A DNA stretch of 54,760 nt from an uncultured Elusimicrobia bacterium (GTDB lineage Bacteria > Elusimicrobiota > Elusimicrobia > UBA1565 > UBA9628): positions 1 through 54,760 of the forward strand of contig CAYHNV010000002.1 in NCBI GenBank assembly GCA_964358065.1, in the 5' to 3' direction. The notes below the pieces were generated by a model that saw only the letters and a list, made by a program, of their open reading frames with translations, searched no databases and was not told where the DNA came from. Of the stretch, positions 15,319 to 32,620 are shown in pieces. Made by a program: the position numbers and the translations under genes. Positions within the stretch are counted from its first letter, which is position 1, and every line of letters begins with the position of its first letter.

Positions 15319-16304
15319 TACAGCCCGCGCGCGTGCAGGTCGTGGATGTGAATCATGCCGACCGAGCGTCCGTGGGAGTCCACGACGGGCAGGACATTGA
15401 AGGGATTCTTGCGATCCTCCATGATCTCGACCGCGCGGGCGGCCAGAGAGGTCGGGGCGATCTTTGTCGGCCGGCGATTCATGATGCTCTGGACCGGGAG
15501 CTTGCGGATGTCGAAGCCTTTCCCTAATACCTGGCGGATATCGAAGTCGGTGATGAGCCCGAGGAAGCGGCTGCGGCGGTCGATGACCGATACCGCCCCG
15601 GCGCACATGCGCGTCATCTCAATGAGCATCGACATGGCGGAGACGTCGGAGCGTACGACTGGGTTGTCCGTGCCGCAGCGCATGATATCTGAGACCTTGA
15701 GCGTGAGGCGGCGGCCAAGGCGTCCGCCCGGATGGTTGAGCGCGAAGTGCTCACGGTCGAAGCCGCGGACCTTCATGAGTGCTACGGCCAGCGCGTCGCC
15801 GGCGGCCAGGGCTGCCGTCGTGCTGCAGGTCGGTGCGAGGTTGAGCGGACAGGCCTCGGCCTTCACGGGCGTTTCCAGGACCAGCGCGGCGGCGCGGGCG
15901 AGAGTCGAGCGCGGATTGGCGGTCAGCGCCACGATCTTGACGCCGAGGGCGCGCAGGCGCGGCAGGAGCGCGTTAAGCTCGTCGGACTCCCCCGACTTGC
16001 CCACGGCGATCAGGATGTCGCCCTTTTGGACCAGCCCCATGCCGCCGTGCAGGGCGTCGGTCGGGTCCATGTGAACGGCGGGCGTGCCCGTTGACGAAAG
16101 CGTGGCGGCGATTTTCTGCGCGATGAGGCCGGACTTGCCGACGCCGGTCACGAGGACCTTGCCGCTGCATCGGGAGAGAAGCCGCACCGCCGCGGCGTAG
16201 CGCGCGTCGACGGCTCGGCCCAGGCCCACCAGTGTCGCTGTCTCTAAGCGGAGCACACGGCGGATTTCGCGGATGATCTTGGCGTCACGTCGGGAGGGGG
16301 TCAT
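15318..16304 (-). CDS. kpsF: KpsF/GutQ-family sugar-phosphate isomerase (SIS plus two CBS domains)
   Basis: GKVLVTGVGKSGLIAQKIAATLSSTG (SIS), followed by a C-terminal CBS pair. Confidence 0.8.
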   Translation of the reverse strand: MTPSRRDAKIIREIRRVLRLETATLVGLGRAVDARYAAAVRLLSRCSGKVLVTGVGKSGLIAQKIAATLSSTGTPAVHMDPTDALHGGMGLVQKGDILIAVGKSGESDELNALLPRLRALGVKIVALTANPRSTLARAAALVLETPVKAEACPLNLAPTCSTTAALAAGDALAVALMKVRGFDREHFALNHPGGRLGRRLTLKVSDIMRCGTDNPVVRSDVSAMSMLIEMTRMCAGAVSVIDRRSRFLGLITDFDIRQVLGKGFDIRKLPVQSIMNRRPTKIAPTSLAARAVEIMEDRKNPFNVLPVVDSHGRSVGMIHIHDLHARGL

Positions 16305-16325
16305 GGGTTGTGTTCCATTTTGTCT

Positions 16326-17045
16326 TTAGGAGTGCAGATACCGCTCGCGGCGGCGGGGCGAGGCGAAAATATCCTGGACCGACTCGTAGTCCTCGGGGCG
16401 GCCGATGTCCAGCCATTCCGCCTTGTTGCGGAAGCCGACCACGATCCCGCTCGCGTCTGTGATGCGCCGGATCAGGTCTGGGATGCCCAGCGCTTCGCCG
16501 GACCGGATGTGGCGCAGGACGCGGCGGTCGAAGACGTTGACGCCCATGCTGACGAGGTGGCGGCGTGATGGCTTTTCCGTGTAGGCGCACAGGCGGTCTT
16601 TGTCGTCCAGTTCAATGACGCCGAAGTCAATCTTCGAGAGGCGCTCGCAGACGGCGATGGCGGCGTCGGCCCCGAGATCGCGGTGATAGTCGTAGAGCTT
16701 GCCGAAGTCGAGCGTCGTGAGCAGGTCGCCGTTGATGGTCAGGAAGCGGGGCTGCAGAGCACGGATGAGCTTGAGCGCGCCGGAGGTTCCCAGCGGTTTA
16801 TCCTCGCGCACGTAGCGGATCTTCACGCCCCAGCGGCGGCCGTCGCCGCAGTAGGCCCGGACCAATTCGGCGAGGTGTCCGGTCGAGATGATGATGTCGG
16901 TGAAGCCGAAGTGCTTCAGTTGGCGCAGGACGATTTCGATGATCGGGTAGTCGCCGACGGGGACGAGCGGCTTGGGTAAAGTCGCCGTGTACGGCCGCAG
17001 GCGCGTGCCCTTGCCGCCGGCCAGGATGACGGCTTGTCGTTTCAT
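16326..17045 (-). CDS. sugar-1-phosphate nucleotidyltransferase
   Basis: Start MKRQAVILAGGKGTRLRPYTATLPKPLVPV at 17045 (ATGA overlap). Confidence 0.8.
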   Translation of the reverse strand: MKRQAVILAGGKGTRLRPYTATLPKPLVPVGDYPIIEIVLRQLKHFGFTDIIISTGHLAELVRAYCGDGRRWGVKIRYVREDKPLGTSGALKLIRALQPRFLTINGDLLTTLDFGKLYDYHRDLGADAAIAVCERLSKIDFGVIELDDKDRLCAYTEKPSRRHLVSMGVNVFDRRVLRHIRSGEALGIPDLIRRITDASGIVVGFRNKAEWLDIGRPEDYESVQDIFASPRRRERYLHS

Positions 17046-17950
17046 GCCCCTTCCTCCATATCCGCCTTCATCGCGGCCAGCCCCTCGGCGAGGGTCATGG
17101 CCCGCACGCCGAGCTCCCGCTCCATGCGCGCGACGCGGAAGGTCGTGTTCTTCGGGCGCAGCGCGATGCCCGGAAAGCGAGAGCTGTCGACGCGCTTGAC
17201 GAGCTCCGCGTCCAGTCCGAACACGGCGGCGAGCTTGCGTCCGAACTGCCAGCGGTTCACCGAGTCTCGTCCGGCGAGGTGGAATATCCCCGAGGGGCGC
17301 TTCTTCAGGATGGCCCACAGGGCCTCTCCGCATTGATGGTTGTAGAGCGGGTTCTCGTGCACGTCGTCGACGAGATCCACGGCCTCGCCCTTAAGCAGCT
17401 TCTCGTAGATCCAGGTCGCGGGATTCGGGCGGGTGACCATGCGGTTCCAGCCGTACATCAGGATCGGGCGCACGATCGTCCACTTCTCGAGCGTCTCCTG
17501 CACGAGCCGCTCGCACTCGACCTTCAGTCGCCCATATTTGTTGACCGGCCGGACCGGGTCGGACTCGCGGTAGGGCGGCTTGGTCCCGTCGAAGACGGCG
17601 TTCGTCGAGACGTAGACCAGGTGGATGCCGCGCTGGCGGCAGGCGGCGGTCACGTTGAGCGTGCTGACGATATTGGACTCGAGACTCTCGGCGTAATGGC
17701 GTTCGACGTAGTCGACGCTGGCGATGCCGGCGGCGTGCACGACCGCGTCGAAGCGGTGTCGCGAGAACAGGCGCTCGACGGCGCGCTTGTCTCTCAGGTC
17801 GAGCGCCAGGTGCGTCGCGCGGCCTCTCGGCACCTTATAGTCGCGCAGATGGACGGAGACGATCTTGGTCCCCGCGGGGGCGGTCTCATCCATGCCCTTG
17901 CCGAGCAGGCCGGTGCCGCCGGTGATCAGGATGCTCTGCGGTTTCTTCAT
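17042..17950 (-). CDS. RmlD-like NDP-4-keto-sugar reductase (extended SDR)
   Basis: MKKPQSILITGGTGLLGKG and YGRLKVECE (YxxxK). About 300 aa. Confidence 0.65.
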   Translation of the reverse strand: MKKPQSILITGGTGLLGKGMDETAPAGTKIVSVHLRDYKVPRGRATHLALDLRDKRAVERLFSRHRFDAVVHAAGIASVDYVERHYAESLESNIVSTLNVTAACRQRGIHLVYVSTNAVFDGTKPPYRESDPVRPVNKYGRLKVECERLVQETLEKWTIVRPILMYGWNRMVTRPNPATWIYEKLLKGEAVDLVDDVHENPLYNHQCGEALWAILKKRPSGIFHLAGRDSVNRWQFGRKLAAVFGLDAELVKRVDSSRFPGIALRPKNTTFRVARMERELGVRAMTLAEGLAAMKADMEEGA

Positions 17951-19089
17951 GACAGCCATTCCCCTTCCCACAAGCCCTTGAAGAACTCCTGGACGGGAAG
18001 GAGGACGATCCCGTCTTCCGTTTTCCGGCGCGAACGCTCCAGGCAGACGACCAAAGAGTGTTTGAGTTTGACTTCCTCCCTCAGCGCGCGCAGACCCTTC
18101 AAGTCCCTTTCGGTCACGGAAGCCTTGGCCTTCACCTCGACGGCGACGGCGTCGCCCACCACGAAATCCACTTCGAATTGGGATTGGGAGCGCCAGTAGG
18201 TGAGCGGAACGGTCAGGCGGCGGTAATCCAGGAAAGACCGCAGCTCGAGGAAGACCTGATGTTCCAGGGCCTGCCCGAAAGACGCCGAACCCGGGGAATG
18301 GGACTCGATGTGCTTCAGGACGTTGGCGATGCCCACATCGAAGAGGTAGAACTTGGCCATGGCCACGGGCTTGCGCTTCAGGGTCTTCTGATAGGCCGGC
18401 AGCAGATGCCCCACCAAGGTGTCCACCAAGACTTGATAATGCTCCCGCACCGTCCGGGCCGGAACGCCGGCGTCGTTGGCCACGGCCGTGTAATTGACCT
18501 GTTCCCCGCTGGTCATCCCCGCCACATCCAGGAATCGGGAGAAATTCTCAATGGAACGGATCAGGCCCTCCGCCCGGATCTCTTCGCGCAGATAGGCGCC
18601 CACATAAGCTCTCAGATCCTCCAGAGGTCGTTGAGAATTCAAGATCGACGGCAACCCCCCGCGGTTGAGCCGCTGACTCAGGGGGACTCCAGCCGTCTCG
18701 GCGGAAACCAAGGGGTTCAGCGCGGCCATCCAGGCCCTTCCCCCGAGGAGATTGGCCGCTCCGCGGCGGAGCTTTCGGGCGCTCGAGCCCGTCATCACCA
18801 CCCGCAGCGATGGGTTGCGATCCAGCATCAGCTGGACCTCGTTGAGAAGGATGGGGAGTTTTTGGATCTCATCGATGACCAGGCATGATCTTCGGTCGGG
18901 ATGCCTCTGGCGCAGGCGCTCGGGGTGGGAACTCAACTCGTGAAAGGTCTCCGATTCCAGCAGATCGACGAAGACCGCCTCGGGAAGGGAGGCCCGGAGA
19001 AGAGTGCTTTTCCCGGTCTGCCGGGGGCCTAGCAGGAAAAAGGACTTATGGCTCAGGAGCGCGGGAAGGTCGAGGAGCCGTTTGTACAT
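17947..19089 (-). CDS. AAA+ ATPase with DUF4143 and a PD-(D/E)xK-like C-terminus
   Basis: Walker A GPRQTGKST and Walker B CLVIDEIQ. C-terminal EVDFVV...VAVEVKA. ATGA overlap with the downstream reductase gene. Confidence 0.75.
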   Translation of the reverse strand: MYKRLLDLPALLSHKSFFLLGPRQTGKSTLLRASLPEAVFVDLLESETFHELSSHPERLRQRHPDRRSCLVIDEIQKLPILLNEVQLMLDRNPSLRVVMTGSSARKLRRGAANLLGGRAWMAALNPLVSAETAGVPLSQRLNRGGLPSILNSQRPLEDLRAYVGAYLREEIRAEGLIRSIENFSRFLDVAGMTSGEQVNYTAVANDAGVPARTVREHYQVLVDTLVGHLLPAYQKTLKRKPVAMAKFYLFDVGIANVLKHIESHSPGSASFGQALEHQVFLELRSFLDYRRLTVPLTYWRSQSQFEVDFVVGDAVAVEVKAKASVTERDLKGLRALREEVKLKHSLVVCLERSRRKTEDGIVLLPVQEFFKGLWEGEWLS

Positions 19090-21241: not shown

Positions 21242-22000
21242 ATGTCCTCCTCGCAGCCTCTGACGGATCCGGAGTTCTGGGACCGTTTTTGGGGGAACGT
21301 CCGTCTGCCAGCGTTTCCGGACGCCTCTCGGCGCTACGAGCGCTGCTTCCTGGAGATCTTTGAGCGTTTCTTTAAGCCCGATCCAGGCCTCCGGGTTTTT
21401 GAAGCCGGCTGTGCTCCCGGTGCTTGGCTTTCCTATTTCAGCCGCCATTTCGGTTATCAGGCTTACGGCTGTGACACGTCGCCGCGTGGGGTCGAACTGA
21501 CGCGGGAGAATTTCCGCCTTTGCGGCATCGCCGGCACGGTGGTCCAGACGGAATTTCTGGATGTTCCCGGCGAGGGCACCTTCGATGTGGTCTTGTCGCT
21601 GGGCTTCATCGAGCATTTCGCCGATCCGGGCCCCGTGCTGGACAAGCATGTGCGCCTGCTTAAGCCGGGGGGAGTTCTGGTGCTTGAGGTCCCGAACCTG
21701 GTTGGTCTCAACGCCTGGCTGGTTACCCCAGAATTGCTCGCGGTGCATAATCAGACGGTCATGAATAGGCTCTTTTTCGAGGACTTCGGGAGAAGTCGGG
21801 GGCTGGAAACACTCTTCCTGGGCTATATCGGCGGCTTCGAGCCGGACAACTTGGGGCCGCCGCGCCCGGCGCTGCTGCGCCGTGTCGTGCTGAAGGCGCT
21901 TCGAATCCTGCGGGCTCTTCCAGGCACGGGCAAGCTTAATTCCGTTCTCTTCAGCGGCTTCCTGATCGGTCTCTACCGTAAGCCGCGCGAAGTGCGCTGA
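21242..22000 (+). CDS. class I SAM-dependent methyltransferase
   Basis: ATG at 21242 (the track starts at TTG 21221). VFEAGCAPGAWL and LKPGGVLVLE. Confidence 0.7.
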   Translation: MSSSQPLTDPEFWDRFWGNVRLPAFPDASRRYERCFLEIFERFFKPDPGLRVFEAGCAPGAWLSYFSRHFGYQAYGCDTSPRGVELTRENFRLCGIAGTVVQTEFLDVPGEGTFDVVLSLGFIEHFADPGPVLDKHVRLLKPGGVLVLEVPNLVGLNAWLVTPELLAVHNQTVMNRLFFEDFGRSRGLETLFLGYIGGFEPDNLGPPRPALLRRVVLKALRILRALPGTGKLNSVLFSGFLIGLYRKPREVR

Positions 22001-23736
22001 AGCGTCTCTTCGACGAAAGCCCGGACAGCCGGCAGGCTGGGATCGAGGCCGCGGCCGTGGCGCGACAGGTATTCGGCGCGTGCCGCCTCCTCGCCGCAGG
22101 GGAGCTCCCCCGTGATCCAGAGCTCGAGAAGGGCGATGAAGGCATCATCATCCGCCGCGCAGGCGGCGGCGCGGCGAAGCGCGGGCTCGCCTTCCGGCGC
22201 GACATGAAATGGATCGCCGATATGGCAGGCAAGTTTGGCACCTTTGGCCATGGCCTGCAGCAGGCCGGTGCAGGGGTAATCCATGATGATGCCCTCATAG
22301 CCTGAAAAATAGCGGTCGGGATCGAGAGGAGACTGGTCGAAGCTCACGTTCTTGATTCCGCAGTTGGCGATGAATTCAGACAAAGGTTCATACAAGCACC
22401 AATTGTATTGGGCCGGATGCTGGCGCAGGACGAGGGTTGATTCAGGACGCCGCGCGAAAAGTTTGAGAACGCGGCGGTGGCGGCGGAACATGGCCGTATG
22501 ATCGGTCAGCGGATAGGAAAGGTTTCCGTCGGCGAACAAGGGGTTGCCGGGATTGAGGAGCAGAACATACAGGAACCGGCTTTTTTGCGGGCAAGCGGGC
22601 CGCAACTCGTCGAGCAAGGTGCTGCCCATTCGATAGACGCGGCCATCCGCGCGCAGACCGGAGAGGAAGGCGGCGTCGTCGGAGCCGTAAGCCAGATTAT
22701 GGCTGGCGGGGACGGTTTCAGCCGCGGCTGTCAGCCCGAAATGCTGCATGTAGCCGCCGTGCTGGTAGAAGACCGTAGGTAATGCCTGCGCCTTTAGAAA
22801 GTAATTGACCAAGTATTCCTCGGGCGAACCGCAGAACGTGCTGAGCGCGCCGCGCAGGTCATGGCGTTTGACCAGGTCTGGTATGTGTTCGGATAGGTGC
22901 CGACGCAGGAGCGCGTAGCGCGCGAAGCACTCCAGCGCGATCGCAAGAAGATGCGGCAGAGTCAGCGGCAGCGTCTGTTGGAATTCCTCTTCCAGCGCGG
23001 AACGAAAGCGCGCGGCGGTTTCGTCGTCGGCGGGGGCGCCTCCCAGCACCAGAGCCTCGGCGGCCAGTTCCGCAGCCGTGAACGAGGAGAACTGCGATTT
23101 TAGGAAAGGCCGTAACGGCGCCCAATCGTAGGCGAAGGCGGTCACCAGTCCCGGTTTTACGCCGCGCGGGGCCAAGCGCGCCAGCTTGCGTAAAAGACCG
23201 GCCGGAGTCAGACGCTTGAGGCGATTGACGAGCCGAGGCAGGAGTTCGGACCGGCGTCGTATGAGGGTGTGTCTCTTCGCCGGCACGACCCAGAAATAAA
23301 GAGCGGCGCGGTTGTAGATGTGATCATTCCAGGAGACGGCGGCGCGGGTGTGATGGGGCAGGTCGCTAAAAATATGGACATCGGCCTGCTCGAGCGAGCG
23401 CCGGCGCAGCTCCTCGGCGAGAGCGTAGTCGGCGAGCATCTTGAGTGGCGCCAGCAGGCCCAACCAGCTCTCGCGCTCGGCCCCGAATAGGTCGCGGAAC
23501 ACATGCTCCAGGCGAGTGAAGTTCTCCAGGCCGGAGGCGCGGAATTCGGCGGCATCGACGAGGGCGTCGTTATTCTTGAAAGGGATGTCGGCCTGCTCCA
23601 GCAGCCAGGCGGCCAGCGGGGTGACGGCGTAGACCTCGTCCCAAGGCCGGGCGCGGAGCGCTTCGATCAGGCCGTCTTCGACGACGGGGCGGCGGAGATC
23701 GACGACTGCGATCCGGCCCCTCAGCGTCTCTACCAA
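21973..23736 (-). CDS. hypothetical 587-aa protein, possible KpsC/KpsS-type (Capsule_synth-like) or sialyltransferase-like ulosonic-acid transferase
   Basis: No classical motif at the N-terminus. The C-terminal half has FLYVLLLNPGNPLFADG...LVLRQHPAQ...GIIMDYPCTGLLQAMAKGAKL, which resembles the Q-x-D...K-x-HP...nS-x-x-x-EAl pattern of HP-motif transferases. Confidence 0.35.
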   Translation of the reverse strand: MVETLRGRIAVVDLRRPVVEDGLIEALRARPWDEVYAVTPLAAWLLEQADIPFKNNDALVDAAEFRASGLENFTRLEHVFRDLFGAERESWLGLLAPLKMLADYALAEELRRRSLEQADVHIFSDLPHHTRAAVSWNDHIYNRAALYFWVVPAKRHTLIRRRSELLPRLVNRLKRLTPAGLLRKLARLAPRGVKPGLVTAFAYDWAPLRPFLKSQFSSFTAAELAAEALVLGGAPADDETAARFRSALEEEFQQTLPLTLPHLLAIALECFARYALLRRHLSEHIPDLVKRHDLRGALSTFCGSPEEYLVNYFLKAQALPTVFYQHGGYMQHFGLTAAAETVPASHNLAYGSDDAAFLSGLRADGRVYRMGSTLLDELRPACPQKSRFLYVLLLNPGNPLFADGNLSYPLTDHTAMFRRHRRVLKLFARRPESTLVLRQHPAQYNWCLYEPLSEFIANCGIKNVSFDQSPLDPDRYFSGYEGIIMDYPCTGLLQAMAKGAKLACHIGDPFHVAPEGEPALRRAAACAADDDAFIALLELWITGELPCGEEAARAEYLSRHGRGLDPSLPAVRAFVEETLQRTSRGLR

Positions 23737-24566
23737 GTCGTTCGACCGCCGTCGATGACGACGTTGGTCCCCGTCATGTAGGAGGATGCGTCGGATACCA
23801 TGAATTGGACGGCGCCCTTGTACTCGTCTTTGCGTGCCATGCGCCCGATGGGGATCAGCGACGAAAGCCGCGCGACGAAGTCCTCATTCTGGTTGTGGCG
23901 TACTCCGCCCGGCGACAGGGTGTTGACGCGCACGCCGTCCTGCGCCCAATAGGTGGCGAGGTAGCGGGTCAGGCCCACGAGCCCGCTCTTGACGACGGAG
24001 TAGCTGACGGGTTTGACGGGCTGGTCGCGCTCGGCAAGGCCGGGCCGGCGATAGAGGCGCTGGTCGGGCGCGATCACCGCCAGATCGGACGCGATATTGA
24101 GGATGACGCCACGTCCGCGCCGAGCCATCTCGGCACCCAGCACGCGGCTGCACAGGAAGGCGCCCGTCAAGCCGACGGCCAGGTCCTTTTCCCATTGCGC
24201 GACGGGAAAGGCCTCGAGCCGCGACCAGTGGCCGCCGCCCTTAGCCGACGGGCCGACTTTTGGGTCGTTGGCGGCGTTGTTAATCAGGATGTCCACGCGG
24301 CCGAAGCGCTTGAGGACGGTCTTAAGAAGATCTTTGACGCATGCCTCGTCGGTGATGTTGCAGCCGACTCCCAGGGCCTGGGTTTTGAAGCGCTTCGCCA
24401 AAGAGGCCGCAGCTTTGGTCGCCTTGGCCGCGTCGATGTCGGCGAGGACGGGACGGCCTCCGGCCTCGGCCACGGCCTCGGCGTGCATGAGGCCGAGCAG
24501 GCCGGCACCGCCGGTGATGACGGCGACGCGGCCATTGAGCCTGAATCGGGACAAGGGTTTCGTCAT
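23730..24566 (-). CDS. short-chain dehydrogenase/reductase
   Basis: VAVITGGAGLLG, NNAA, YSVVKSG (YxxxK). Confidence 0.8.
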   Translation of the reverse strand: MTKPLSRFRLNGRVAVITGGAGLLGLMHAEAVAEAGGRPVLADIDAAKATKAAASLAKRFKTQALGVGCNITDEACVKDLLKTVLKRFGRVDILINNAANDPKVGPSAKGGGHWSRLEAFPVAQWEKDLAVGLTGAFLCSRVLGAEMARRGRGVILNIASDLAVIAPDQRLYRRPGLAERDQPVKPVSYSVVKSGLVGLTRYLATYWAQDGVRVNTLSPGGVRHNQNEDFVARLSSLIPIGRMARKDEYKGAVQFMVSDASSYMTGTNVVIDGGRTTW

Positions 24567-25339
24567 GAGAGGCTCCTGGTCTGTCCGCCGTCGACGACGA
24601 GCGCGGCTCCGGTGATGAAGGCGGCGCGGCTCGAGGCGAGGAAGGCGACGGCGTCGGCAATCTCCTTGGGAGAGCCGAAGCGCGCCATCGGCACTTTGGC
24701 GCGGATGTGTCCGGTCACCTTGGCGCTGTCTTCCTTGCGCTTAATGTCCCACGTGCCGCCGGGGAAATCGATATTGCCCGGTACGACGGCGTTGACTCGG
24801 ATGGAGTCCTTCGCCAGGTCGCGGGACAGAGCCTTCATCCACGCGTGCAGGGCGGCCTTGGCCGATGAGTAGGCGACCGGCGCGCCAAGATCCTCGAGGC
24901 CGGCGATTGAGCCCACGATGACGATGGCGCCGCCCTGGCGCTTGAGCGCGGGAGCCGCGTGGCGTACGGCGCAGATGGGCGCGCGCAGGTTCTGGCTCAA
25001 CGCCAGGTCCCAGTCCGCGTCGGTGGGGAGGGAGCCGCCGGGGATGCTGCCCGTTCCAACATTGATCGCGGTGATGTCCAGACGCCCCCAGCGCTTCAGT
25101 ATGCCGACGACGGCCGCGGCGGACTGATTGTCCACGGAGAGATCGGCGGCGTAGGCGGCGATTCGATCGGTCCCGAACTCTTTTCCCAGGCATGCGACGC
25201 TTTCGGCCAGTGGCCCGGTCGAGCGCGCGGTCAGGGCGACACGGCAGCCTTCAGCGGCCAGACCGCGCGCGATCGCGAGCCCGATGCCGCGGGATGCGCC
25301 GGCCACCCATGCGACCTTATCCTTGAGCCCTAGATCCAT
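24563..25339 (-). CDS. short-chain dehydrogenase/reductase (FabG-like)
   Basis: AWVAGASRGIGLAIA and YSSAKAAL. ATGA overlap with the downstream SDR. Confidence 0.8.
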   Translation of the reverse strand: MDLGLKDKVAWVAGASRGIGLAIARGLAAEGCRVALTARSTGPLAESVACLGKEFGTDRIAAYAADLSVDNQSAAAVVGILKRWGRLDITAINVGTGSIPGGSLPTDADWDLALSQNLRAPICAVRHAAPALKRQGGAIVIVGSIAGLEDLGAPVAYSSAKAALHAWMKALSRDLAKDSIRVNAVVPGNIDFPGGTWDIKRKEDSAKVTGHIRAKVPMARFGSPKEIADAVAFLASSRAAFITGAALVVDGGQTRSLS

Positions 25340-26183
25340 GTTCCGCCTCCAGACGTCCGATCAAGCCCCGCGCGTATGCCGTGTTCTTCTTGATCCACGC
25401 GACCTCGTCGCCTTCCGTCCCGCGCGCGATTTGGAGGACGAAGTGCCCTTTGTAGGCGCACGCGCGAAGTTCGGCGAATGTCGCGGCGAAATCGGCGCTG
25501 CCGGTGCCCAGCGGGACTGTGCCGCCGCCGCGTACGCGGTCCTTGATGTGGACGCAGGAAATCCAGCGGCCGACGGCCGCGAACTCGTCTTTCGCTCCGT
25601 AGCCCAGCGATGCTGAGTTCCCGATGTCGTGGTTGGCACCGACGGAGTCATGCCCGATTCTCTCGAGTAGGTCGCGGAAAGCGGCGGGTTCCAGCGAAGT
25701 TTCCAAGCACAGCTTGAGCCCGGCGCGGACGGCGAGTGGAGCGGCTTGGCGAAAGACGGAGACGACGGTTTCGAAGGCCGCGGCCGTGCCGATGGCGGAG
25801 GCGTCCACGAAGGGGATGTCCATGTGTTCCAAGCCCGCCGCGCCGGCGGCGGCGATCATTTGTTTCAGTGCGGTTTCGCGGGCGCGCTGTTCCGCGGCTG
25901 GGGCCGAATGGAGGGGGCGGGGAATGAACAAGTCGGCGCAGGCCGAGCGCACCTTCACGCCGGTACGGCGGGAGAGTCCGGCAATCTCAATACGGCCGGC
26001 GTCCGTCATCAGCGGGTTGCTCTCCCAGTCAGGGTCGTCGATAATCCATTCGATGCGTTGAAGCCCGCACTCGGCCGCACGCGCGAACTCTTCGCGCCAC
26101 TGGGTGGCGGGGAAGGACTGGAAGAGGCCGCCTTCCCGCGGCGACAAGCGGCCCTGCATGGTCGCCAGTTCGTGCCGGTTCAT
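25317..26183 (-). CDS. sugar-phosphate isomerase/epimerase (xylose-isomerase-like TIM barrel)
   Basis: Start MNRHELATMQGRLSP at 26183 (ATGA overlap). IEWIID...LETS...HDIGN...HIKD resembles the metal-ligand pattern of the AP_endonuc_2 family. Confidence 0.65.
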   Translation of the reverse strand: MNRHELATMQGRLSPREGGLFQSFPATQWREEFARAAECGLQRIEWIIDDPDWESNPLMTDAGRIEIAGLSRRTGVKVRSACADLFIPRPLHSAPAAEQRARETALKQMIAAAGAAGLEHMDIPFVDASAIGTAAAFETVVSVFRQAAPLAVRAGLKLCLETSLEPAAFRDLLERIGHDSVGANHDIGNSASLGYGAKDEFAAVGRWISCVHIKDRVRGGGTVPLGTGSADFAATFAELRACAYKGHFVLQIARGTEGDEVAWIKKNTAYARGLIGRLEAEHGSRAQG

Positions 26184-26644
26184 TTGGCGACCATCTCCAC
26201 GAGTTCGATGATGGTGCCGTCCGGGTCGTGCGCGTAGGCGACCTTCGTCCTGCCGTCGGGCGAGAGGATGGGGAGATTGTTGACCCTGAGGCCGCATCGC
26301 GTGATTTCCATACACAGCGCCGAGACGTTTGGTACGGTGAACGCCACGTGCGACGCACCCACGTCGTTGGAGCGCCGTTGCTTGGGCGCGGAGCGGGGAT
26401 GGGAGAGGTACTGCAGAAGTTCAACCAGGCCGCCGCCGGGAGCTTTGAGCTTCACCCACTTGATGCGCGCGCCCCTGAGCCCGACCACGGTGTCGATGTA
26501 GGGCCCGCTTTCCGTCATGGTTCGCCAGGGCTTGAGGCCAAGTAGATCGCGGTAGAATCCGAGAGAACGCGCCAAATCCGTCACGACGATGCCGGTGTGG
26601 CGCAACGCCGTGACTCCTAGCGCCTGACGGCGGTTGCGAGACAT
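26180..26644 (-). CDS. VOC/glyoxalase-family protein
   Basis: LRHTGIVVTDLARSLGFYRDLLGL and HVAFTV...DPDGTIIELVE. The start could instead be GTG at 26614. Confidence 0.75.
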   Translation of the reverse strand: MSRNRRQALGVTALRHTGIVVTDLARSLGFYRDLLGLKPWRTMTESGPYIDTVVGLRGARIKWVKLKAPGGGLVELLQYLSHPRSAPKQRRSNDVGASHVAFTVPNVSALCMEITRCGLRVNNLPILSPDGRTKVAYAHDPDGTIIELVEMVAK

Positions 26645-28008
26645 TCGGCCAGGGCCTCCTCGACGACATCGATGCCTTCCATCAGGGCGCTCTCGGAGAT
26701 GGTGAGGGGCGGCCCCATCTTAATGGAGCCCACGCCTGTGCGGATGAGCAGCAGTCCTTTGTTGACGGCCGCCTCCGTGACGCGGTCGCCCAGGTTCACG
26801 TCCAATTCTCCCGGCTTGTCGCCGGCTAAAAGCAGACCCCATAGCAGGCCGTGGCCGAAGACGTGGGCGACCGCAGCAGGGAAGCGCTTCTGGATGCGTT
26901 CTAGCCGCGCACGGACTTGCGGCTCGAGCCCGGCTGCGCGTTCGGGGAGGCGCTCGTCATGCAGGACTTCGAGCGTGGCGGCACCGGCCGCGGCGCATAG
27001 AGGATTTCCCGAGTGCGTGCTGTTGAGCGAGGGGTCTAAGTTGAGTATTTCCGCGCGGGAGAGCACGGCCGAGAGGGGCACGCCCGAGCTGATGCCTTTG
27101 CCGCAGCAGATGATATCGGCCTTGACCCCGAAGTGTTCGTGCGCGAACATTTTTCCGGTGCGCCCGAAACCGGACTGGACTTCGTCGAAGCACAGCAGGG
27201 CCTGGTGCTTGTCAGCCCAACGGCGCACGGCCGACACGTAATCCTTCGGGTAGAAAAGCGCGGCCCAGCCCTGGTAGGGTTCCATCAGGAAACCCGCGAT
27301 GTCGTTGGCCTGAATGTCGGAGGTCAGCAGGACCTTCATGTCTTGCTCGAAACGTTCCGCGCCTGATGACTTTCCGTTGGCGTCCCAGGGATACGGGAAC
27401 GGGAGGTGGTGGATGTTTGGGTCGAGCGTACCGATCCAGGCCTTGGCTTCGGCGCGACCGGCCATGGTCTGGGCGCCGAGCGTCTTGCCGTGGAAGGAGT
27501 TGGTCCAGCAGATCATCTTGAGCTTCGTGCTGGAGATCGTTCGGCCGCGTAGGCGGCACAGCTTGAGCGCGCACTCGGTGGTTTCCGCGCCCGTCGAGAG
27601 CAGTAAAGCCTTCTCAATCCCGGGCGGAGCGGCTTCAACGAGCAGGCGGACCAGCTTGGCGCGCACGGCGGTGGGAAAATAGTAGCTGTGGACCAACTTG
27701 CCGTCGATCATGTCGCGCATCGCTTTAAGGACATGCGGATGCGAGTGGCCGGTGTTGGTCACGAAAATACCGGAGGTGAAGTCGATCCAGCGGTTGCCCC
27801 ACGCGTCGAAGACAGAGTGGCCCTCCGCGCGGTCCCACACCACGGGCAGTTGGTCCCAGGTCATGGAGGCGGGCTCGTATTTGGAGAGCTCCTTAAGGAT
27901 GGGCAGCGCCTGCGGCGGCGGCTGCGGGGTCACGATGCGGCGGTGGCGCGTCTCGACGCGCGGCACCGAAACGGGAGTGAGGCGCGCGGGGGGGGGATTG
28001 TCGGCCAT
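26617..28008 (-). CDS. class-III (Aminotran_3) PLP-dependent aminotransferase
   Basis: Start MADNPPP at 28008 (TAATG overlap). NTGHSHPHV, FDEVQSGFGRTGKMFA, and the PLP Lys in CCGKGISSG. Confidence 0.85.
   Translation of the reverse strand: MADNPPPARLTPVSVPRVETRHRRIVTPQPPPQALPILKELSKYEPASMTWDQLPVVWDRAEGHSVFDAWGNRWIDFTSGIFVTNTGHSHPHVLKAMRDMIDGKLVHSYYFPTAVRAKLVRLLVEAAPPGIEKALLLSTGAETTECALKLCRLRGRTISSTKLKMICWTNSFHGKTLGAQTMAGRAEAKAWIGTLDPNIHHLPFPYPWDANGKSSGAERFEQDMKVLLTSDIQANDIAGFLMEPYQGWAALFYPKDYVSAVRRWADKHQALLCFDEVQSGFGRTGKMFAHEHFGVKADIICCGKGISSGVPLSAVLSRAEILNLDPSLNSTHSGNPLCAAAGAATLEVLHDERLPERAAGLEPQVRARLERIQKRFPAAVAHVFGHGLLWGLLLAGDKPGELDVNLGDRVTEAAVNKGLLLIRTGVGSIKMGPPLTISESALMEGIDVVEEALAECLATAVRR
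27988..27996 (-). repeat. homopolymeric C9 (G9 on the + strand) in codons 5-7 of the aminotransferase gene
   Basis: Counted directly: ggcgcgcGGGGGGGGGattg. It encodes the PPP of MADNPPPARL. It is the longest homopolymer I found in the window. Confidence 0.9.
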
Positions 28009-28673
28009 TAGTCCAGGCTCCCATGGCGTTCGATGAGTCTCAGCATGATCGCTTCGACTGCCCAAAATTGCGTCACGTTATCGATCTCATAGTTGGCATG
28101 ATCGGGGATGACCATCGTCTCGCGCTTGGCGCCGTACCAGTGCCCTTCAGCGAGATGCGGAGTTTTATGGACATACACATTGCCGTCGTCGTAAAACCAG
28201 CCCTTCATTTTTTGACGGGGGACATTATCCATGGTGCCCCACTCGTACTGGTAAGTCATGAAGCCTGTGGCGAGCGTGTCGACGCCAGTTGCGAAGAAGC
28301 GCTCGATTGCCGAGTCGATGATGCCGCCGATGCGGATGGGGGAGGTCGGTTGAAGGAGGACCAAGGCCTCGGGCTTCTCCTGGCGGACGATGTGCTGGAG
28401 CACGGCGACCGTGGTGGCGCCGTCGTCGGCCAATTCTTTCGGGCGCCACAGCACCTCGGCACCGGCTTTCGTGGACACTGCGGCGATCTCGGCGTCCTCG
28501 GTGGAAACGACGAACCGGTCCAGTCGCCTGGAACGCAGGGCCGCCTCGATGGACCAGACGATCAGCGGCTTGCCGGCGATCGTCTTCAGATTTTTACGCG
28601 GGATACCTTTTGAGCCGCCGCGCGCGGGGATGACTCCGAGAATCATGAGACCCTCACTTTTTTGCCGTCCCAA
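28008..28673 (-). CDS. acylneuraminate (NeuA/SpsF-type) cytidylyltransferase family protein
   Basis: GVIPARGGSKGIPRKNLK...GKPLI. The start is either 28673 or, more likely, MILGVIP at 28646. Confidence 0.8.
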   Translation of the reverse strand: MGRQKSEGLMILGVIPARGGSKGIPRKNLKTIAGKPLIVWSIEAALRSRRLDRFVVSTEDAEIAAVSTKAGAEVLWRPKELADDGATTVAVLQHIVRQEKPEALVLLQPTSPIRIGGIIDSAIERFFATGVDTLATGFMTYQYEWGTMDNVPRQKMKGWFYDDGNVYVHKTPHLAEGHWYGAKRETMVIPDHANYEIDNVTQFWAVEAIMLRLIERHGSLD

Positions 28674-29361
28674 GCAGCATCTGTTCTTTGGAGAAGCGGA
28701 TCCAGGTGTTGACCGAGTCGGGCCAAGGCGCGCGGTCCCAGGGGCGATAAGGCAGCGGGATGAGGGCCGTGAGCCAAGCCAGAGGCTTGAGGATCGGCCA
28801 AGCCCAGAGGGCGGGGAGTTGATGTAAGTAATCTACCGATACATCGCGAAAACCTGCCAAAGTCATCGCGTCCGAGAGCGCGTTGGCGCCGAAAGGCTTG
28901 ATGTGTCCTAGATCCTCAAAGAATATTTTTTGTGTGTGCCGCCAGCTGGGAGTCATCAGCACGACCGTGCCGCCGGGCTTGAGCACGCGCAGGCATTCCG
29001 CGATCATGGCTTCCGGCCGATGCAGATGCTCGACGACCGATTTGGAGAAGACGTAATCGAAGCTGGCGTCGGGAAACGGGAACGCCTGCCAATCAAGGTT
29101 GAGGGTCTTGATCTCGCAGTCGGCGGCGAAGCCGGCGGAGCTGGCGGCGGAATCGACGCCGACGCCGGAAAATCCCAGCCGCACGAATTCCTGCAGGTAC
29201 TCGCCCCGGCCGCACCCGACGTCGAGCAGACGCCCAGGCCGCCCATAGACGGTCTCCGCCAGGCGTCGGGTCAGCCTGGCCGGGTAGATCGTCTTGGGAA
29301 GGCGGCCCAAGGCATAGGTGACTTGGAGATAGTCGGGTTTTCCGGGGGTGTCTGCCTTCAT
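28654..29361 (-). CDS. class I SAM-dependent methyltransferase
   Basis: LLDVGCGRGEYL and LKPGGTVVLMTP. ATGA overlap with the upstream HAD gene stop. Confidence 0.8.
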   Translation of the reverse strand: MKADTPGKPDYLQVTYALGRLPKTIYPARLTRRLAETVYGRPGRLLDVGCGRGEYLQEFVRLGFSGVGVDSAASSAGFAADCEIKTLNLDWQAFPFPDASFDYVFSKSVVEHLHRPEAMIAECLRVLKPGGTVVLMTPSWRHTQKIFFEDLGHIKPFGANALSDAMTLAGFRDVSVDYLHQLPALWAWPILKPLAWLTALIPLPYRPWDRAPWPDSVNTWIRFSKEQMLLGTAKK

Positions 29362-29663
29362 GGCGTTGCGAGCCAGTCCTTGATGTTGACGGCCTTGTCA
29401 TCGATGTAGAGGTCGGCGGTCGGCTTGCCGAAGTACAGTTCGTGGTAGCGTACGCCCCAGTCCCGCATCTGACGCTCGGTCGTCGCGCGCCAGTCGATGC
29501 CCGTCGTCGAGCCTCGGGCCGTGTAAAGCAGTACCCGGTGCTTGGCTTCGAAGAGCGTGTTGACGCGGGCGATGGTCGCCGGCACCGGCAGGGCGCTCTC
29601 GTAGTCGCCCTCCGTGTTGGTGCATAGAGTCCCGTCGATGTCGAAACAGTAAACCACGCTCAA
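29358..29663 (-). CDS. capless (C0) HAD-superfamily phosphatase, about 100 aa
   Basis: TTG at 29663 (TTGA overlap with the neuB-like stop) or GTG at 29657. All four HAD motifs are present: FDIDGTL, LYTAR, GKP, YIDDK. Confidence 0.65.
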   Translation of the reverse strand: MSVVYCFDIDGTLCTNTEGDYESALPVPATIARVNTLFEAKHRVLLYTARGSTTGIDWRATTERQMRDWGVRYHELYFGKPTADLYIDDKAVNIKDWLATP

Positions 29664-30613
29664 GGATTCTTGGGCTGCCAGTAGTAGCGGAGCTTCTTGG
29701 CGTTGGCCGTTTCGACGGGGCTGACCCGCTTGACACCGTCGCCCAAGGTTGCGTTGAGGGATCGCAGGTCGCGCAGCAGATATTCCAGGCCACGCGGTTC
29801 CAGGGAGGCGGACTGGTCGCTGCCGTACATGGAGCGGTTGAGCGTGATGTGGCGCTCGACGGACGTAGCGCCCAGCATGACCGCGATCAGAGGGCCGAGC
29901 AGGCCAACTTCGTGGCCCGAGTAGCCGATCGGGCACTTATAGCGCTCACGCAAGGTCTGGATACACAGGATGTTCAACTCCTCGTCCTTGGCCGGGTAGA
30001 CGGAGAGGCAGTGCATCAAGGTGAACGGGCACTTATGCTTCTTGAAGATCTCGACGGCTGCATCGATCTGGGCGAAGTCGCTCATTCCGGTGGAGATGTA
30101 GGTGTGGCGGCCTTCCTTGGCCACTTCTTCAATGAGCGGGATGTGAGTCAGCATCGGGGAAGCGATCTTGTTGAACGGGAGGTCATACTGCTGCAGGAAC
30201 TTCTGGGCGTCAACGTCCCATGCCGAAGCTGACCACTGGATGCCCAGTTGCTTGCAGTAGCGGGCGATTTCGTCGAACTGCTTCTTACCGAATTCCAGGC
30301 CCTCCTTCTGGTGTCGCGTCGTCGTGCCCCAAGGGCTTTCACGCGGAGTGTCCAGGACTTCCTTGGTGTAGACCTTGTCGAGGGTGCGCTTCTGGAACTT
30401 GACGGCGTCGCAGCCGGTCTTGTGGGCCACGTCGATCAGTTGCTTAGCGATCTCCATGTCTCCGTTGTGGTTGATGCCGATTTCGGCGATTATGAAGACG
30501 TGGCCGGGAATCTGAATCGGACCGCGAATCTCCAAGCCCTTGGGCGCGGAGGCGACACTATTGTTAGTCTGGCTCATCGGATTCTCCTTGGATTTCATGT
30601 TATCGTCCATCAC
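29660..30613 (-). CDS. NeuB-family PEP-condensing sugar-acid synthase lacking the C-terminal SAF domain
   Basis: FIIAEIGINHNGDMEIAKQLIDVAHKTGCDAVKFQKR and GYSGHE. The protein ends about 40 aa after the barrel (..LGDGVKRVSPVETANAKKLRYYWQPKNP). The start is ambiguous (30613, 30598 or 30577). Confidence 0.8.
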   Translation of the reverse strand: MMDDNMKSKENPMSQTNNSVASAPKGLEIRGPIQIPGHVFIIAEIGINHNGDMEIAKQLIDVAHKTGCDAVKFQKRTLDKVYTKEVLDTPRESPWGTTTRHQKEGLEFGKKQFDEIARYCKQLGIQWSASAWDVDAQKFLQQYDLPFNKIASPMLTHIPLIEEVAKEGRHTYISTGMSDFAQIDAAVEIFKKHKCPFTLMHCLSVYPAKDEELNILCIQTLRERYKCPIGYSGHEVGLLGPLIAVMLGATSVERHITLNRSMYGSDQSASLEPRGLEYLLRDLRSLNATLGDGVKRVSPVETANAKKLRYYWQPKNP

Positions 30614-32348
30614 GCAAGGTCGCCATCGCTTTGTCCGATGGGGTCAATGGCTTGGACTGGCGCTCCTGGACGATTCTGCGCAGAGACTTGTAGTCGATCG
30701 GGGGCGGGGCCGGGCGAAGTCTGCCCCGCAGGTGTTCCGCCAGATGGCTGACGAACGTGCGCCATGGAAGACGGGCCGATTCCTGCTTAAGAAGCCAAAG
30801 CCAGATGATAAGGCCGCCGATCGGGTAGCAATAGGCCGAGATGATGTGATATTTGAGGTTGCGTTGGAGATTGAAGTAGCCGCCCTTGGCGTACTCGTTG
30901 CGGCGGAAGAGGTCGCGCAGCGGCGGTCGCGGGAGGTTGTTCACCTTTCGATAGTGATGCGTGACGTCAAGTATGATTTGCCGCCGCCAGGATTGGACGG
31001 CCAGGTAATCGGAGTTGGTAAAATTCAAGAACTTGGTCTCGTCGCTGGCGTTGATGTCGGAGATGTCGAGCAGATAGCGTTCCTCGTCGAGCAAAGTCTT
31101 GCCGATGAGCCCTTTGAGACGGGCGTACTCGTACACGGGCGTTCCCGGCAGGGCCTGGATGTAATTGATGCTCATCCGGTTGATGGGCGACTCGTCGAGA
31201 TGTTCCGTGCTGCGCTTCAGGAACTCAATCGTGTCGCGGATCGTCTTCTCGGTCTCGCCGGGCATGCCCAGTATCATCTGGTAGATCGTGTAGAGGCCTG
31301 CATCCTTGGTCCAGCGGACGGCGTTGTCGTTGTCGCTCTGCGTCGCCTTCTTCTCCATCATCTCGAGGATCTCGGCGCTGCCCGTCTCCATACCGTAATA
31401 GACGGCCACGCAGCCCGAATCCTTGAGCCGCCGCAGGATATCAGGATTGACCGTGCGCACGCGCACGCCGCCGACCTGGTAGAGCACGTCCTCGGCCTTC
31501 ATTGCCTCCGTGAACTCAAGGAGATGGCGCCGGTCGGAGCCGAAGTTCTCATCGGAGATCTGGAGGAAGCCGACGCTGTAGTTCTCTTTCAGATAGCGGA
31601 CCATCTTGATGAAATTGGGGATGTTGAAGGCGCGGAAGCCCTTGTTCCAGCGGTGGCAGAAGGTGCAGCGCGCCACGCAGCCCTTCGTCGTGATCAGCGT
31701 CGCCATCTTCTTGCCTTTTCGGTGCGCTTGTTGGCTGCGGGGATCGGCTGCGAAATCGGGGCGAGTCATCGGATCGTTGACGAAGTTCCCGATGAGGGAG
31801 TGCTTCTCAAGGATCAAATAGTCGGGCTCGAAAAGCTCGTCGGCCGCGATGGGTGCCTCGTGGCCGGTAAAAACCATCTCGCCCGAGGCGTCGAGGTAGG
31901 TGATGCCGGGGATCGACAGCAGGGTGGCTTCGTCCTTTGTGCGGCCGGGATGGGTCTTGAAATAGTTCATCAGGTTGCGGACGACGACATCTCCTTCCCC
32001 GATGACGCAGTAGTCGATTCCGACGAGGCGGTGCAGGATCTCGGCCGAGGCCGCCAGGTTTCCGCCGACGATGATGCGGGCGCCAGGGGCGACGCGCTGG
32101 ATCATGAGGACCAGCTTCTTCGTGTAGGCGTAGGCCGTAGAGACGACGGCGGAGATGCCGACGATGTCAGGTTGGGATTCGGCGAAGAATCGCTCGACAT
32201 CTTCGGGGCTCGGGCGCAGGCCGTCGATGTCGTAGAAGGTAGGGTCCCACCCGTCCTTGCGGAGGCTCTGGATGATAGCCATCGAGCCGAAGGGGGGGTA
32301 GTCGGTGGGAGTCGGGCGGATCGGTGTCGTGCAGATGACGATCTTCAT
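30600..32348 (-). CDS. B12-binding-domain radical SAM protein with a C-terminal hydrophobic extension
   Basis: N-terminal cobalamin-binding-like domain (DIVGISAVVSTAY..IIVGG). CxxxCxxC in TTKGCVARCTFCHRW. C-terminal helix YHIISAYCYPIGGLIIWLWLL. Confidence 0.8.
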   Translation of the reverse strand: MKIVICTTPIRPTPTDYPPFGSMAIIQSLRKDGWDPTFYDIDGLRPSPEDVERFFAESQPDIVGISAVVSTAYAYTKKLVLMIQRVAPGARIIVGGNLAASAEILHRLVGIDYCVIGEGDVVVRNLMNYFKTHPGRTKDEATLLSIPGITYLDASGEMVFTGHEAPIAADELFEPDYLILEKHSLIGNFVNDPMTRPDFAADPRSQQAHRKGKKMATLITTKGCVARCTFCHRWNKGFRAFNIPNFIKMVRYLKENYSVGFLQISDENFGSDRRHLLEFTEAMKAEDVLYQVGGVRVRTVNPDILRRLKDSGCVAVYYGMETGSAEILEMMEKKATQSDNDNAVRWTKDAGLYTIYQMILGMPGETEKTIRDTIEFLKRSTEHLDESPINRMSINYIQALPGTPVYEYARLKGLIGKTLLDEERYLLDISDINASDETKFLNFTNSDYLAVQSWRRQIILDVTHHYRKVNNLPRPPLRDLFRRNEYAKGGYFNLQRNLKYHIISAYCYPIGGLIIWLWLLKQESARLPWRTFVSHLAEHLRGRLRPAPPPIDYKSLRRIVQERQSKPLTPSDKAMATLRDGR

Positions 32349-32620
32349 CGGGGGCGGTGTGCTCCGGTCGCGGACTCAATGACCGCCCAAAGCGTGTCGG
32401 CGCGGCCGGCGCGCACCAAGGATTCTCGGTAGGCCAGGTCCACTGCCGGGGTGAAGACGTCCTTGTAGAAGCCCATGCCGCCCGGCTTGCCTGTCTCAAG
32501 CCAGCGCAGGTGATTGGAAAGATCGTAGCGCTGTATCCCGGTGACTTCGGCCTTGGCGCCGGCGACCAGCGCCGTCCGCGTCAGGAAGCATGCCGTTTGG
32601 GTGGGAACCTTTTTCAGCAA
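32345..32620 (-). pseudogene. 5'-truncated remnant of a class-I methyltransferase (paralog of 20367..21221)
   Basis: Begins at TTG. IQRYDLSNHLRWLETGKPGG...DLAYRESLVRAGRADTLWAVIE aligns by eye with FQRYPLSNHLYWLSCGLPGG...TAAYAASLAAAGKCDTLIAHLE. There is no SAM-binding Rossmann part. Confidence 0.6.

Follow-up and report, generated by a model that had tools for sequence, protein, structure and literature searches.

Which sugar does a bacterial locus make, and by what route, when a NeuB-type synthase and a cytidylyltransferase stand in it beside an unfamiliar set of tailoring enzymes? The question is raised by a block of ten genes at positions 23730-32348 in DNA of an uncultured Elusimicrobia bacterium (assembly GCA_964358065.1, contig CAYHNV010000002.1). 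All coordinates refer to the 54,760-nt stretch that was analysed, hereafter the window, unless another locus is named, and the genes of the block were read with Pfam, NCBIfam and motif inspection. The block is probably a self-contained operon for a cytidine monophosphate (CMP)-activated 3-deoxy-2-ulosonic (sialic-acid-like) sugar that would decorate the surface glycan of the surrounding locus. The original prediction, made from the sequence alone, had proposed a route to an undescribed aminated and methylated acid sugar; co-conservation of the genes and the absence of a characterised counterpart support this, and the product would be a sugar of that kind.

The block at 23730-32348 is a real, tightly packed minus-strand operon within a surface-polysaccharide locus. 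In the direction of transcription, its ten co-directional genes encode a B12-binding radical-SAM (S-adenosylmethionine) enzyme, a NeuB synthase, a miniature HAD phosphatase, a class-I SAM methyltransferase, a CMP-sugar synthetase of the CTP_transf_3 family, a class-III aminotransferase, a VOC/glyoxalase-fold protein, a xylose-isomerase-like TIM barrel and two short-chain dehydrogenases/reductases (SDR2 and SDR1). These are the domains that had been predicted, and the NeuB, CTP_transf_3, Aminotran_3, Glyoxalase, AP_endonuc_2, adh_short, Radical_SAM and B12-binding profiles all matched; the HAD protein is recognised by its motifs. Six of the nine junctions overlap or abut (NeuB/HAD, HAD/methyltransferase, CTP_transf_3/aminotransferase, VOC/TIM barrel, SDR2/SDR1 and, with an overlap of 23 nt, TIM barrel/SDR2), and the other three are all within ~30 nt. 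The methyltransferase and CTP_transf_3 genes are separated by a 7-nt gap. The radical-SAM and NeuB genes are separated by the one clear gap, of 22 nt, which has an AAGGAG Shine-Dalgarno sequence inside. At the aminotransferase/VOC junction, one choice of start codon gives a 28-nt overlap and another an 11-nt gap. The proposed limits of the block do enclose the ten genes, but coupling continues on both sides. The array runs past 23730, because a downstream gene for a 587-aa protein (21973-23736, minus strand) overlaps the SDR1 stop with its start, and at the other end the stop of a methyltransferase remnant overlaps the start codon of the radical-SAM gene (ATGA). A promoter and terminator scan gave counts no better than those for shuffled sequence and was hence uninformative, and no RNA families, including cobalamin and SAM riboswitches, and no tRNAs that could serve as integration sites were found in the window.

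The cassette is a mobile, horizontally exchangeable unit. Over positions 23732-32584 (8.9 kb), the DNA shares 82.6% identity with another Elusimicrobia contig (L002), and neither flank is the same. A methyltransferase gene that L002 carries intact contains the upstream breakpoint: DNA homology to L002 begins at 32584, and the remnant in the window (32357-32596, minus strand, 80 aa; a 5'-truncated class-I methyltransferase, compared by tblastn) is 80% identical to residues 284-363 of the 365-aa methyltransferase encoded ahead of the radical-SAM gene in L002. It is at this remnant that the cassette has its upstream recombination breakpoint. The same ten genes stand in the same order in a 93-kb metagenome contig (L166), plus a downstream gene of 58x aa, and where the window has the methyltransferase remnant, this contig has a gene for an AGE-family N-acylglucosamine (GlcNAc) 2-epimerase (L166 8839-9999) coupled to the start of the radical-SAM gene. 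The ten-gene set is also kept in L011, except that the methyltransferase match is weak and the radical-SAM protein more distant. A nearly identical order is seen in a Chlamydiae metagenome-assembled genome (MAG; L083), with B12-radical-SAM enzyme, NeuB, CTP_transf_3, 103-aa HAD, class-IV aminotransferase, TIM barrel, SDR, SDR and an LIC12162-type protein, and this order recurs in an Aminicenantia MAG (L041). The cassette genes occur in shuffled order in MAGs of Rhodospirillaceae, Nitrospirae, Hyphomicrobiales and Nitrosomonadaceae. Had the genes belonged to unrelated pathways, they would not have been expected to stay together in relatives; they are co-conserved across phyla, and the module is therefore real.

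A variant cassette, adjoining a legionaminic-type cluster, is found in the cultured Azospirillum thermophilum CFH 70021 (plasmid NZ_CP029359.1, 107870-136751; L167). It has a NeuB that likewise lacks the SAF domain (58% identical), a CTP/phosphatase fusion, SDR1 (62%), SDR2 (52%), the TIM barrel (47%), a second CTP_transf_3 gene and a distant 495-aa B12-radical-SAM protein. An IS21 element interrupts this cassette, and the neighbouring legionaminic-type cluster is complete; the same region carries two phytanoyl-CoA-dioxygenase-family genes and a TylF-type O-methyltransferase. Versions of the cassette occur widely among uncultured bacteria and archaea and in a few cultured ones; it is a common environmental cassette and not a rare one.

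The synthase (29660-30577, 305 aa) identifies the chemistry at the centre of the block. It matches Pfam PF03102 at 233.6 bits (cut-off 22.1) and ends ~20 residues past the barrel. The SAF (antifreeze-like) C-terminal domain is absent from it and from its whole clade, and the SAF match that had been anticipated for this protein was not obtained, PF03102 being the only one. Its scores fall below the named cut-offs of NeuB_NnaB (TIGR03569, 243.8 against 399.65) and PseI (TIGR03586, 187.3 against 340.25). The catalytic EIGxNHNG, KFQK, SGHE and ERH motifs do not vary within the clade alignment (A2) and align with the solved NeuB and PseI structures. The predicted reaction of the enzyme is the condensation of phosphoenolpyruvate (PEP) with an aldose, which is probably phosphorylated. 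Clade relatives that are 57-70% identical are found in Chloroflexi, Thermodesulfovibrio, Chlamydiae, Pacearchaeota and Methanolobus; the members recovered in the NeuB-seeded metagenome pattern scan are those among the matches listed, and are a lower bound. A large phylogenetic survey had already recorded SAF-less 'environmental' NeuB proteins, with no product given (PMC8208679).

Partner genes of this clade were counted by de novo clustering of open reading frames (ORFs) around 95 loci, and co-occurrence was counted in 45 NeuB-seeded metagenome loci. CTP_transf_3 is rated the most frequent partner (49 of the 95 loci, plus 12 in a second cluster), and SDRs are found in 51, the TIM barrel in 36, a ~165-aa HAD phosphatase of the KdsC/KDN-9-phosphate type in 32 (KDN being 2-keto-3-deoxynononic acid), a ~195-aa GmhA-like SIS protein in 29, the class-III aminotransferase (AT3) in 19, the VOC protein in 17, a class-IV aminotransferase (AT4) in 14 and the ~100-aa HAD in 12. 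The ~165-aa HADs pass the cut-off of the KdsC subfamily, and the SIS proteins score just under the GmhA cut-offs of NCBIfam. The two phosphatase types are interchangeable and mutually exclusive (KdsC-type only in 16 of the 45 loci, miniature HAD only in 10, both in none), and either may be fused N-terminally to the GmhA-like domain. Fusions of CTP_transf_3 with KdsC, KdsC with GmhA, miniature HAD with GmhA and CTP_transf_3 with SDR occur among L088, L031, L127, L093, L101, L094 and L111. These partner patterns and fusions place the isomerase and the synthase in a single pathway with the phosphatase, the CMP-transferase and the SDR, and the partner patterns support a route through phosphorylated intermediates. 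The aminotransferases are likewise interchangeable: in the NeuB-seeded loci AT3 occurs with the VOC protein in all of 8 loci, and AT4 in none of 10, suggesting that AT3 plus VOC and AT4 are two non-homologous solutions to one amination step.

Methanolobus and Thermodesulfovibrio share the order small radical-SAM/SPASM protein, NeuB, CTP_transf_3, class-III aminotransferase, VOC protein and methyltransferase. In Methanolobus sp. WCC1 (L081 6154-9963), the two halves of a transketolase, a transaldolase/FSA, a GmhA-like isomerase and the radical-SAM/SPASM protein directly precede the cassette, which lies ~5 kb from the oligosaccharyltransferase AglB. The transketolase, transaldolase and GmhA-like genes hint that a sugar derived from sedoheptulose is made for an archaeal N-glycan.

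The CMP-sugar synthetase of the window (28008-28646, 212 aa) matches PF02348 at 82.8 bits (cut-off 22.6). Its best NCBIfam match is PseF (118 bits, cut-off 205.7), the KdsB models reach at most 57 bits, below their cut-off, and its nearest solved relatives are NeuA CMP-N-acetylneuraminic acid (Neu5Ac) synthetases. The miniature capless HAD phosphatase (29358-29663, ~100 aa) has DIDGT, GKP and DD motifs; it has no Pfam match at 0.01 and matches TIGR01689 'capsule biosynthesis phosphatase' (22.7 bits, cut-off 162) and HAD_PNKP weakly. To judge from its motifs and its substitution pattern, it would dephosphorylate an ulosonate phosphate. The GABA-AT-like AT3 (26617-28008, 463 aa, Aminotran_3 289.6 bits) has the GKG lysine and GabT and racemases as its relatives in the PDB, and would aminate a keto or aldehyde intermediate. 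The VOC protein (26180-26644, 154 aa, Glyoxalase 43 bits) is an obligate partner of AT3 and may act as an epimerase or isomerase. The class-I methyltransferase (28654-29361, 235 aa, Methyltransf_23 and Methyltransf_11, motif LLDVGCGRG) accompanies the AT3-VOC pair in most related loci and would methylate the sugar at N or O.

The TIM barrel (25317-26183, 288 aa, AP_endonuc_2 85.6 bits) is weakly similar to L-ribulose-5-phosphate 3-epimerase and is a putative sugar(-phosphate) epimerase, isomerase or eliminase. SDR2 (24563-25339, 258 aa, adh_short_C2 174.8 bits) is a classical short-chain dehydrogenase/reductase with the Y-x3-K motif, and is co-conserved with SDR1 and the TIM barrel. SDR1 (23730-24566, 278 aa, adh_short_C2 146 bits) is 50-63% identical across phyla and resembles gluconate-5-dehydrogenase and PtmA (NF006070 and NF006619, ~156 bits, below the cut-offs). 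As SDR1 is distantly PtmA-like, the earlier claim that the families supplying these steps are foreign to the known pathways does not hold for every one of them. A possible PtmA partner of the SIS/GmhA type, PtmF, was dropped, since PtmF of Plesiomonas is listed as a 326-aa oxidoreductase and the Azospirillum gene at the corresponding position has a Gfo/Idh/MocA-type domain. The HAD, radical-SAM, SDR and methyltransferase motifs of the cassette are all intact on inspection. All cassette proteins score below the cut-offs of the named NCBIfam equivalogs (NeuB_NnaB, PseI, PseF, KdsB), and the literature search turned up no case of a NeuB synthase coupled with these enzymes, so the comparison with characterised systems supports the novelty that was predicted.

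The B12-radical-SAM enzyme (30600-32348, 582 aa, B12-binding PF02310 72.9 bits, Radical_SAM PF04055 82.1 bits) carries CVARCTFC (CX3CX2C) at residues 224-231, and a conserved C-terminal extension, which is helical, ~110 residues long and includes a hydrophobic segment. The nearest folds to its AlphaFold2 model (predicted local distance difference test, pLDDT, 85.8) are TsrM, MgmA, AprD4, OxsB and CysS, with sequence identity of at most ~19%. Its best family scores are for BchE and B12-dependent methylases (PhpK-type, ApyD, MgmA), and it reaches no NCBIfam cut-off. Around the radical-SAM family, linkage was counted over 69 genome loci seeded on it: CTP_transf_3 is nearby in 34, a NeuB homologue of any clade in 30, an NAD-dependent epimerase/dehydratase in 26, a DegT aminotransferase in 20, a radical-SAM/SPASM protein in 19, a PtmE-like CBS-nucleotidyltransferase in 11 and a NeuC/LegG-type epimerase in 10. 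A ~590-aa family without a Pfam match (L002 981-2774, L009 11805-13523) also accompanies it in 20 of the 69 loci. Its gene is the one immediately before the SAF-less NeuB gene in the window and also in L002, L166 and L083, but is present in none of the 45 NeuB-seeded metagenome loci. Thus, its inclusion in the module stands in so far as it adjoins NeuB and its family is tied to nonulosonic-acid loci, but as a tailoring enzyme for ulosonic acids it is accessory and does not belong to the cassette core. Its chemistry would most likely be C-methylation; its sequence and fold are compatible with AprD4-like or OxsB-like chemistry as well. No close homologues were found on plasmids at 1e-30, and no description of an association of this family with ulosonic-acid loci was found in the literature; an apparent literature link of NeuB, radical SAM and B12 to hopanoids was a match to the author name 'Neubauer'.

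The cassette is embedded in a ~35-kb glycan-assembly region, as seen with Pfam on the window ORFs, within a long array of minus-strand genes in DNA of 58-73% G+C. This region holds GT2 and GT4 glycosyltransferases, two Wzy_C proteins, an ABC exporter, an acyltransferase_3, several methyltransferases, NDP-sugar epimerases/dehydratases, an RmlD-like reductase and a KpsF/GutQ-family isomerase. Among the scanned major window ORFs, Pfam found no DegT aminotransferase, no NeuC/LegG (Epimerase_2), no PseG and no N-acetyltransferase, and tblastn of the window with DegT and Epimerase_2 queries from related loci was empty. By the same searches, the pathway set of NDP-sugar 4,6-dehydratase, DegT aminotransferase, N-acetyltransferase and hydrolysing 2-epimerase was not found in the window, upholding the earlier statement that the canonical enzymes for Neu5Ac, legionaminic and pseudaminic acid are missing from it. 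No GmhA-like, KdsC-type, transketolase or transaldolase genes were found in the window either. Because the GmhA-like isomerase seen in relatives is missing, the KpsF/GutQ-family sugar-phosphate isomerase of the same co-directional locus (15318-16304, minus strand; SIS and CBS domains, TIGR00393 280.8 bits, cut-off 203.7) was considered as a possible supplier of the aldose phosphate.

Other features of the window concern the glycan locus at large. The KpsF/GutQ isomerase gene adjoins a nucleotidyltransferase ORF with a ~100-aa N-terminal extension (together 15318-17333, minus strand), and an AAA_14/DUF4143 ATPase gene, seemingly an unrelated insertion, lies amid the sugar genes at 17947-19089 (minus strand). 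Positions 10166-13167 have 72-73% G+C and long overlapping ORFs on both strands, one of which is a Wzy_C protein; the second Wzy_C gene is at 41409-43070. An NDP-hexose C-methyltransferase (40107-41420, minus strand; Methyltransf_13/14 with a zinc-binding domain) is present, so that a C-methylated deoxysugar with a branched chain is probably another product of the glycan locus. On the plus strand, the locus is flanked by two tandem GGDEF diguanylate cyclases (93-2509) and by a signalling cluster of a CHASE2-Ser/Thr kinase, a PP2C phosphatase and an FHA protein (45110-49385).

The 587-aa protein encoded downstream of SDR1 has no Pfam or NCBIfam match, the Pfam set having been searched without PF27859. 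It is weakly similar in BLASTP (~1e-7) to the LIC12162-type proteins of L083 and L081, but the NCBIfam model for that family (TIGR04331) is not reached, and it is kept here as GT-B-like and possibly related. Its AlphaFold2 model (pLDDT 76) has UDP-GlcNAc 2-epimerases and GT-B glycosyltransferases as top Foldseek matches. Relatives are limited to Elusimicrobia, and homologues adjoin the radical-SAM gene in L001 and L166. On the modelled fold, it is a candidate transferase for the CMP-sugar.

What the data establish is which domains are present, how the genes are coupled and co-conserved, which phosphatases and aminotransferases replace each other and which genes are fused. The route built on this is inferred, as are its substrate, the sequence of its reactions, where the amine is placed, which kind of methylation takes place and how the finished sugar is built. 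In this route, the TIM-barrel epimerase/isomerase would supply an aldose phosphate, possibly with the KpsF-like isomerase or a housekeeping GmhA. The SAF-less NeuB would join the aldose(-phosphate) with PEP to give an ulosonate phosphate, and the miniature HAD would take off the terminal phosphate. SDR1 and SDR2 would then oxidise or reduce a hydroxyl via a keto intermediate that the VOC protein would rearrange and AT3 would aminate. Methyl groups would be added by the class-I methyltransferase and the radical-SAM enzyme, the latter probably on carbon; CTP_transf_3 would make the CMP-sugar, and the GT-B-like 587-aa protein would transfer it to the glycan. Such a core of synthase, HAD phosphatase and CMP-transferase has a precedent, absent from the original prediction, in the KDN-9-phosphate route and the animal Neu5Ac-9-phosphate route.

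Several observations weigh against this scheme. As no equivalog cut-off is reached, every activity is assigned from superfamily membership, and the HAD assignment is from motifs and substitution patterns. The window has neither the GmhA-like isomerase nor the KdsC-type phosphatase that define the phosphorylated route in relatives, and the AGE-family epimerase of L166 would supply a non-phosphorylated sugar. To our knowledge, class-III and class-IV aminotransferases are not known from sugar pathways, and either could act on a non-sugar. Finally, the 587-aa protein is as similar to 2-epimerases as to transferases.

Could the core instead make CMP-KDN, or a known deaminated acid such as Kdo, by the known phosphorylated route, with the other genes serving other sugars? 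Synthase, HAD phosphatase and CMP-transferase do fit the 9-phosphate logic of Bacteroides and animals, the best NCBIfam model for the KdsC-type phosphatases of related loci is the KDN-9-phosphate phosphatase (~165 bits, cut-off 180), minimal loci of GmhA-like protein, phosphatase, NeuB and CTP_transf_3 only exist, and KDN is often found in environmental microbes (PMC8157484). However, translational coupling joins the tailoring genes to the core, they move with it as one DNA block, their order is kept across phyla, a CTP-SDR fusion exists, and aminotransferase genes are placed between CTP_transf_3 and the TIM barrel in many NeuB-seeded loci, making this explanation quite unlikely. A Kdo-8-phosphate-synthase analogue (arabinose-5-phosphate plus PEP), prompted by the KpsF-type isomerase, was rejected as the CMP-transferase is NeuA/PseF-like and not KdsB-like; the Kdo-type idea is kept only within the deaminated-acid explanation. 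A non-glycan module, for a small CMP-activated or amino-acid-like metabolite made, for example, by 2-keto transamination of the NeuB product, would suit the usual keto-acid or terminal-aldehyde substrates of class-III and class-IV aminotransferases and the absence of a DegT aminotransferase. It is very improbable, though, given that the cassette is embedded in glycan-assembly genes, that a flippase, AglB or LIC12162-type transferases lie near it in other genomes, and that the CMP-transferase requires an intact 2-keto (anomeric) function.

The size of the sugar and the role of the radical-SAM enzyme are affected by two further alternatives. The product might be a C10 ulosonic acid, if the NeuB clade uses a heptose 7-phosphate with PEP or if the B12-radical-SAM enzyme C-methylates the backbone; the GmhA-like partner and the radical-SAM enzyme may each be a route to C10 sugars. 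The GmhA-like isomerase is a frequent and sometimes fused neighbour of the NeuB clade, with no heptose kinase cluster among the common neighbours, the Methanolobus cassette has its transketolase, transaldolase and GmhA-like genes, and the radical-SAM fold resembles cobalamin-dependent C-methylases. CMP-linked C10 acids with no assigned genes have been detected by mass spectrometry (MS) in Magnetospirillum gryphiswaldense, and a related unlabelled species in Methanococcus (bioRxiv 10.64898/2026.04.20.719630; PMC8157484), and several radical-SAM-bearing loci are from Rhodospirillaceae MAGs. Against this, the window has no GmhA-like gene, the GmhA-like proteins, being just under their cut-offs, might isomerise another ketose phosphate, and the Magnetospirillum C10 species resemble di-N-acetyl sugars of the legionaminic/pseudaminic type and not products of this cassette. 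A C10 product is thus unlikely here, and it is similarly doubtful that the SAF-less NeuB cassette, the B12-radical-SAM family or both are the missing genetic basis of the C10 CMP-ulosonic acids seen by MS only. For the radical-SAM enzyme itself, a live alternative to C-methylation is an AprD4-like radical dehydratase, whose product an SDR would finish, or an anaerobic alcohol oxidant that feeds the aminotransferase in place of the radical-SAM/SPASM protein. AprD4 is among its top structural and sequence neighbours, two SDRs are on hand as reductases, and in Methanolobus and Thermodesulfovibrio a radical-SAM/SPASM protein of 265-295 aa takes the B12-radical-SAM position upstream of NeuB, CTP_transf_3 and AT3. 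The best family scores are nevertheless those of BchE and the B12-dependent methylases, with AprD4 at 46.7 bits only, and the two radical-SAM types are not simple substitutes because they are often in the same loci, leaving this role possible but rather doubtful. The CMP-activated, aminated and methylated ulosonic acid made by one operon is the reading that we retain.

Sialic-acid-like sugars cap many microbial surfaces and shape phage, immune and cell-cell recognition, and we know of only three or four characterised ulosonic-acid biosynthetic routes. The cassette offers a candidate for another that is concrete, conserved and modular, found from Elusimicrobia to methanogens, with two phosphatase types, two aminotransferase solutions and optional radical-SAM enzymes as its exchangeable parts. 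The B12-radical-SAM family adds an uncharacterised enzyme that is seemingly dedicated to ulosonic-acid loci. As variants are present in the cultured Azospirillum thermophilum CFH 70021 and Methanolobus sp. WCC1, the proposal is directly testable. MS surveys keep reporting ulosonic acids, including CMP-linked C10 forms, with no genes assigned (PMC8157484; bioRxiv 10.64898/2026.04.20.719630).

Most likely, the cassette falls within ulosonic-acid biosynthesis, a known class, with an enzyme set and route that are uncharacterised; no characterised counterpart of the tailoring set was found in the literature. With the legionaminic (LegB/C/H/G/I/F), pseudaminic (PseB/C/H/G/I/F) and Neu5Ac (NeuC/B/A) pathways it shares the condensation of PEP by a NeuB homologue followed by CMP activation. 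The PtmA of the Campylobacter legionaminic locus is distantly like SDR1, and canonical clusters of this kind often have a member of the radical-SAM family as a neighbour of that family's loci, whereas amination in the cassette is by a class-III aminotransferase with the VOC protein (class IV in relatives). The closest likeness of the core is to the KDN-9-phosphate route of Bacteroides thetaiotaomicron and to human NANS/NANP/CMAS, which likewise combine a NeuB-family synthase with a capless HAD phosphatase, a putative one in the cassette, and with a CTP_transf_3 enzyme. It differs from these in that the synthase is SAF-less and under the curated cut-offs, the phosphatase is a miniature HAD of ~100 aa, relatives commonly have a GmhA-like isomerase as a partner, and the core is coupled to the TIM barrel, two SDRs, AT3, the VOC protein, the methyltransferase and the B12-radical-SAM enzyme. 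The last of these has the B12-binding Rossmann domain and CX3CX2C barrel common to the class B radical-SAM enzymes (GenK, Fom3, TsrM, MgmA, CysS, AprD4, OxsB), but is set apart by its low identity to them, its C-terminal extension and its association with ulosonic-acid loci. For the proposed tailoring by oxidation and amination, a similar idea is seen in Shewanella, where the oxidase KdnB and the aminotransferase KdnA aminate an ulosonic acid after its assembly to give Kdo8N; these are an iron alcohol dehydrogenase and another type of aminotransferase, in contrast to the SDR and class-III/VOC enzymes of the cassette.

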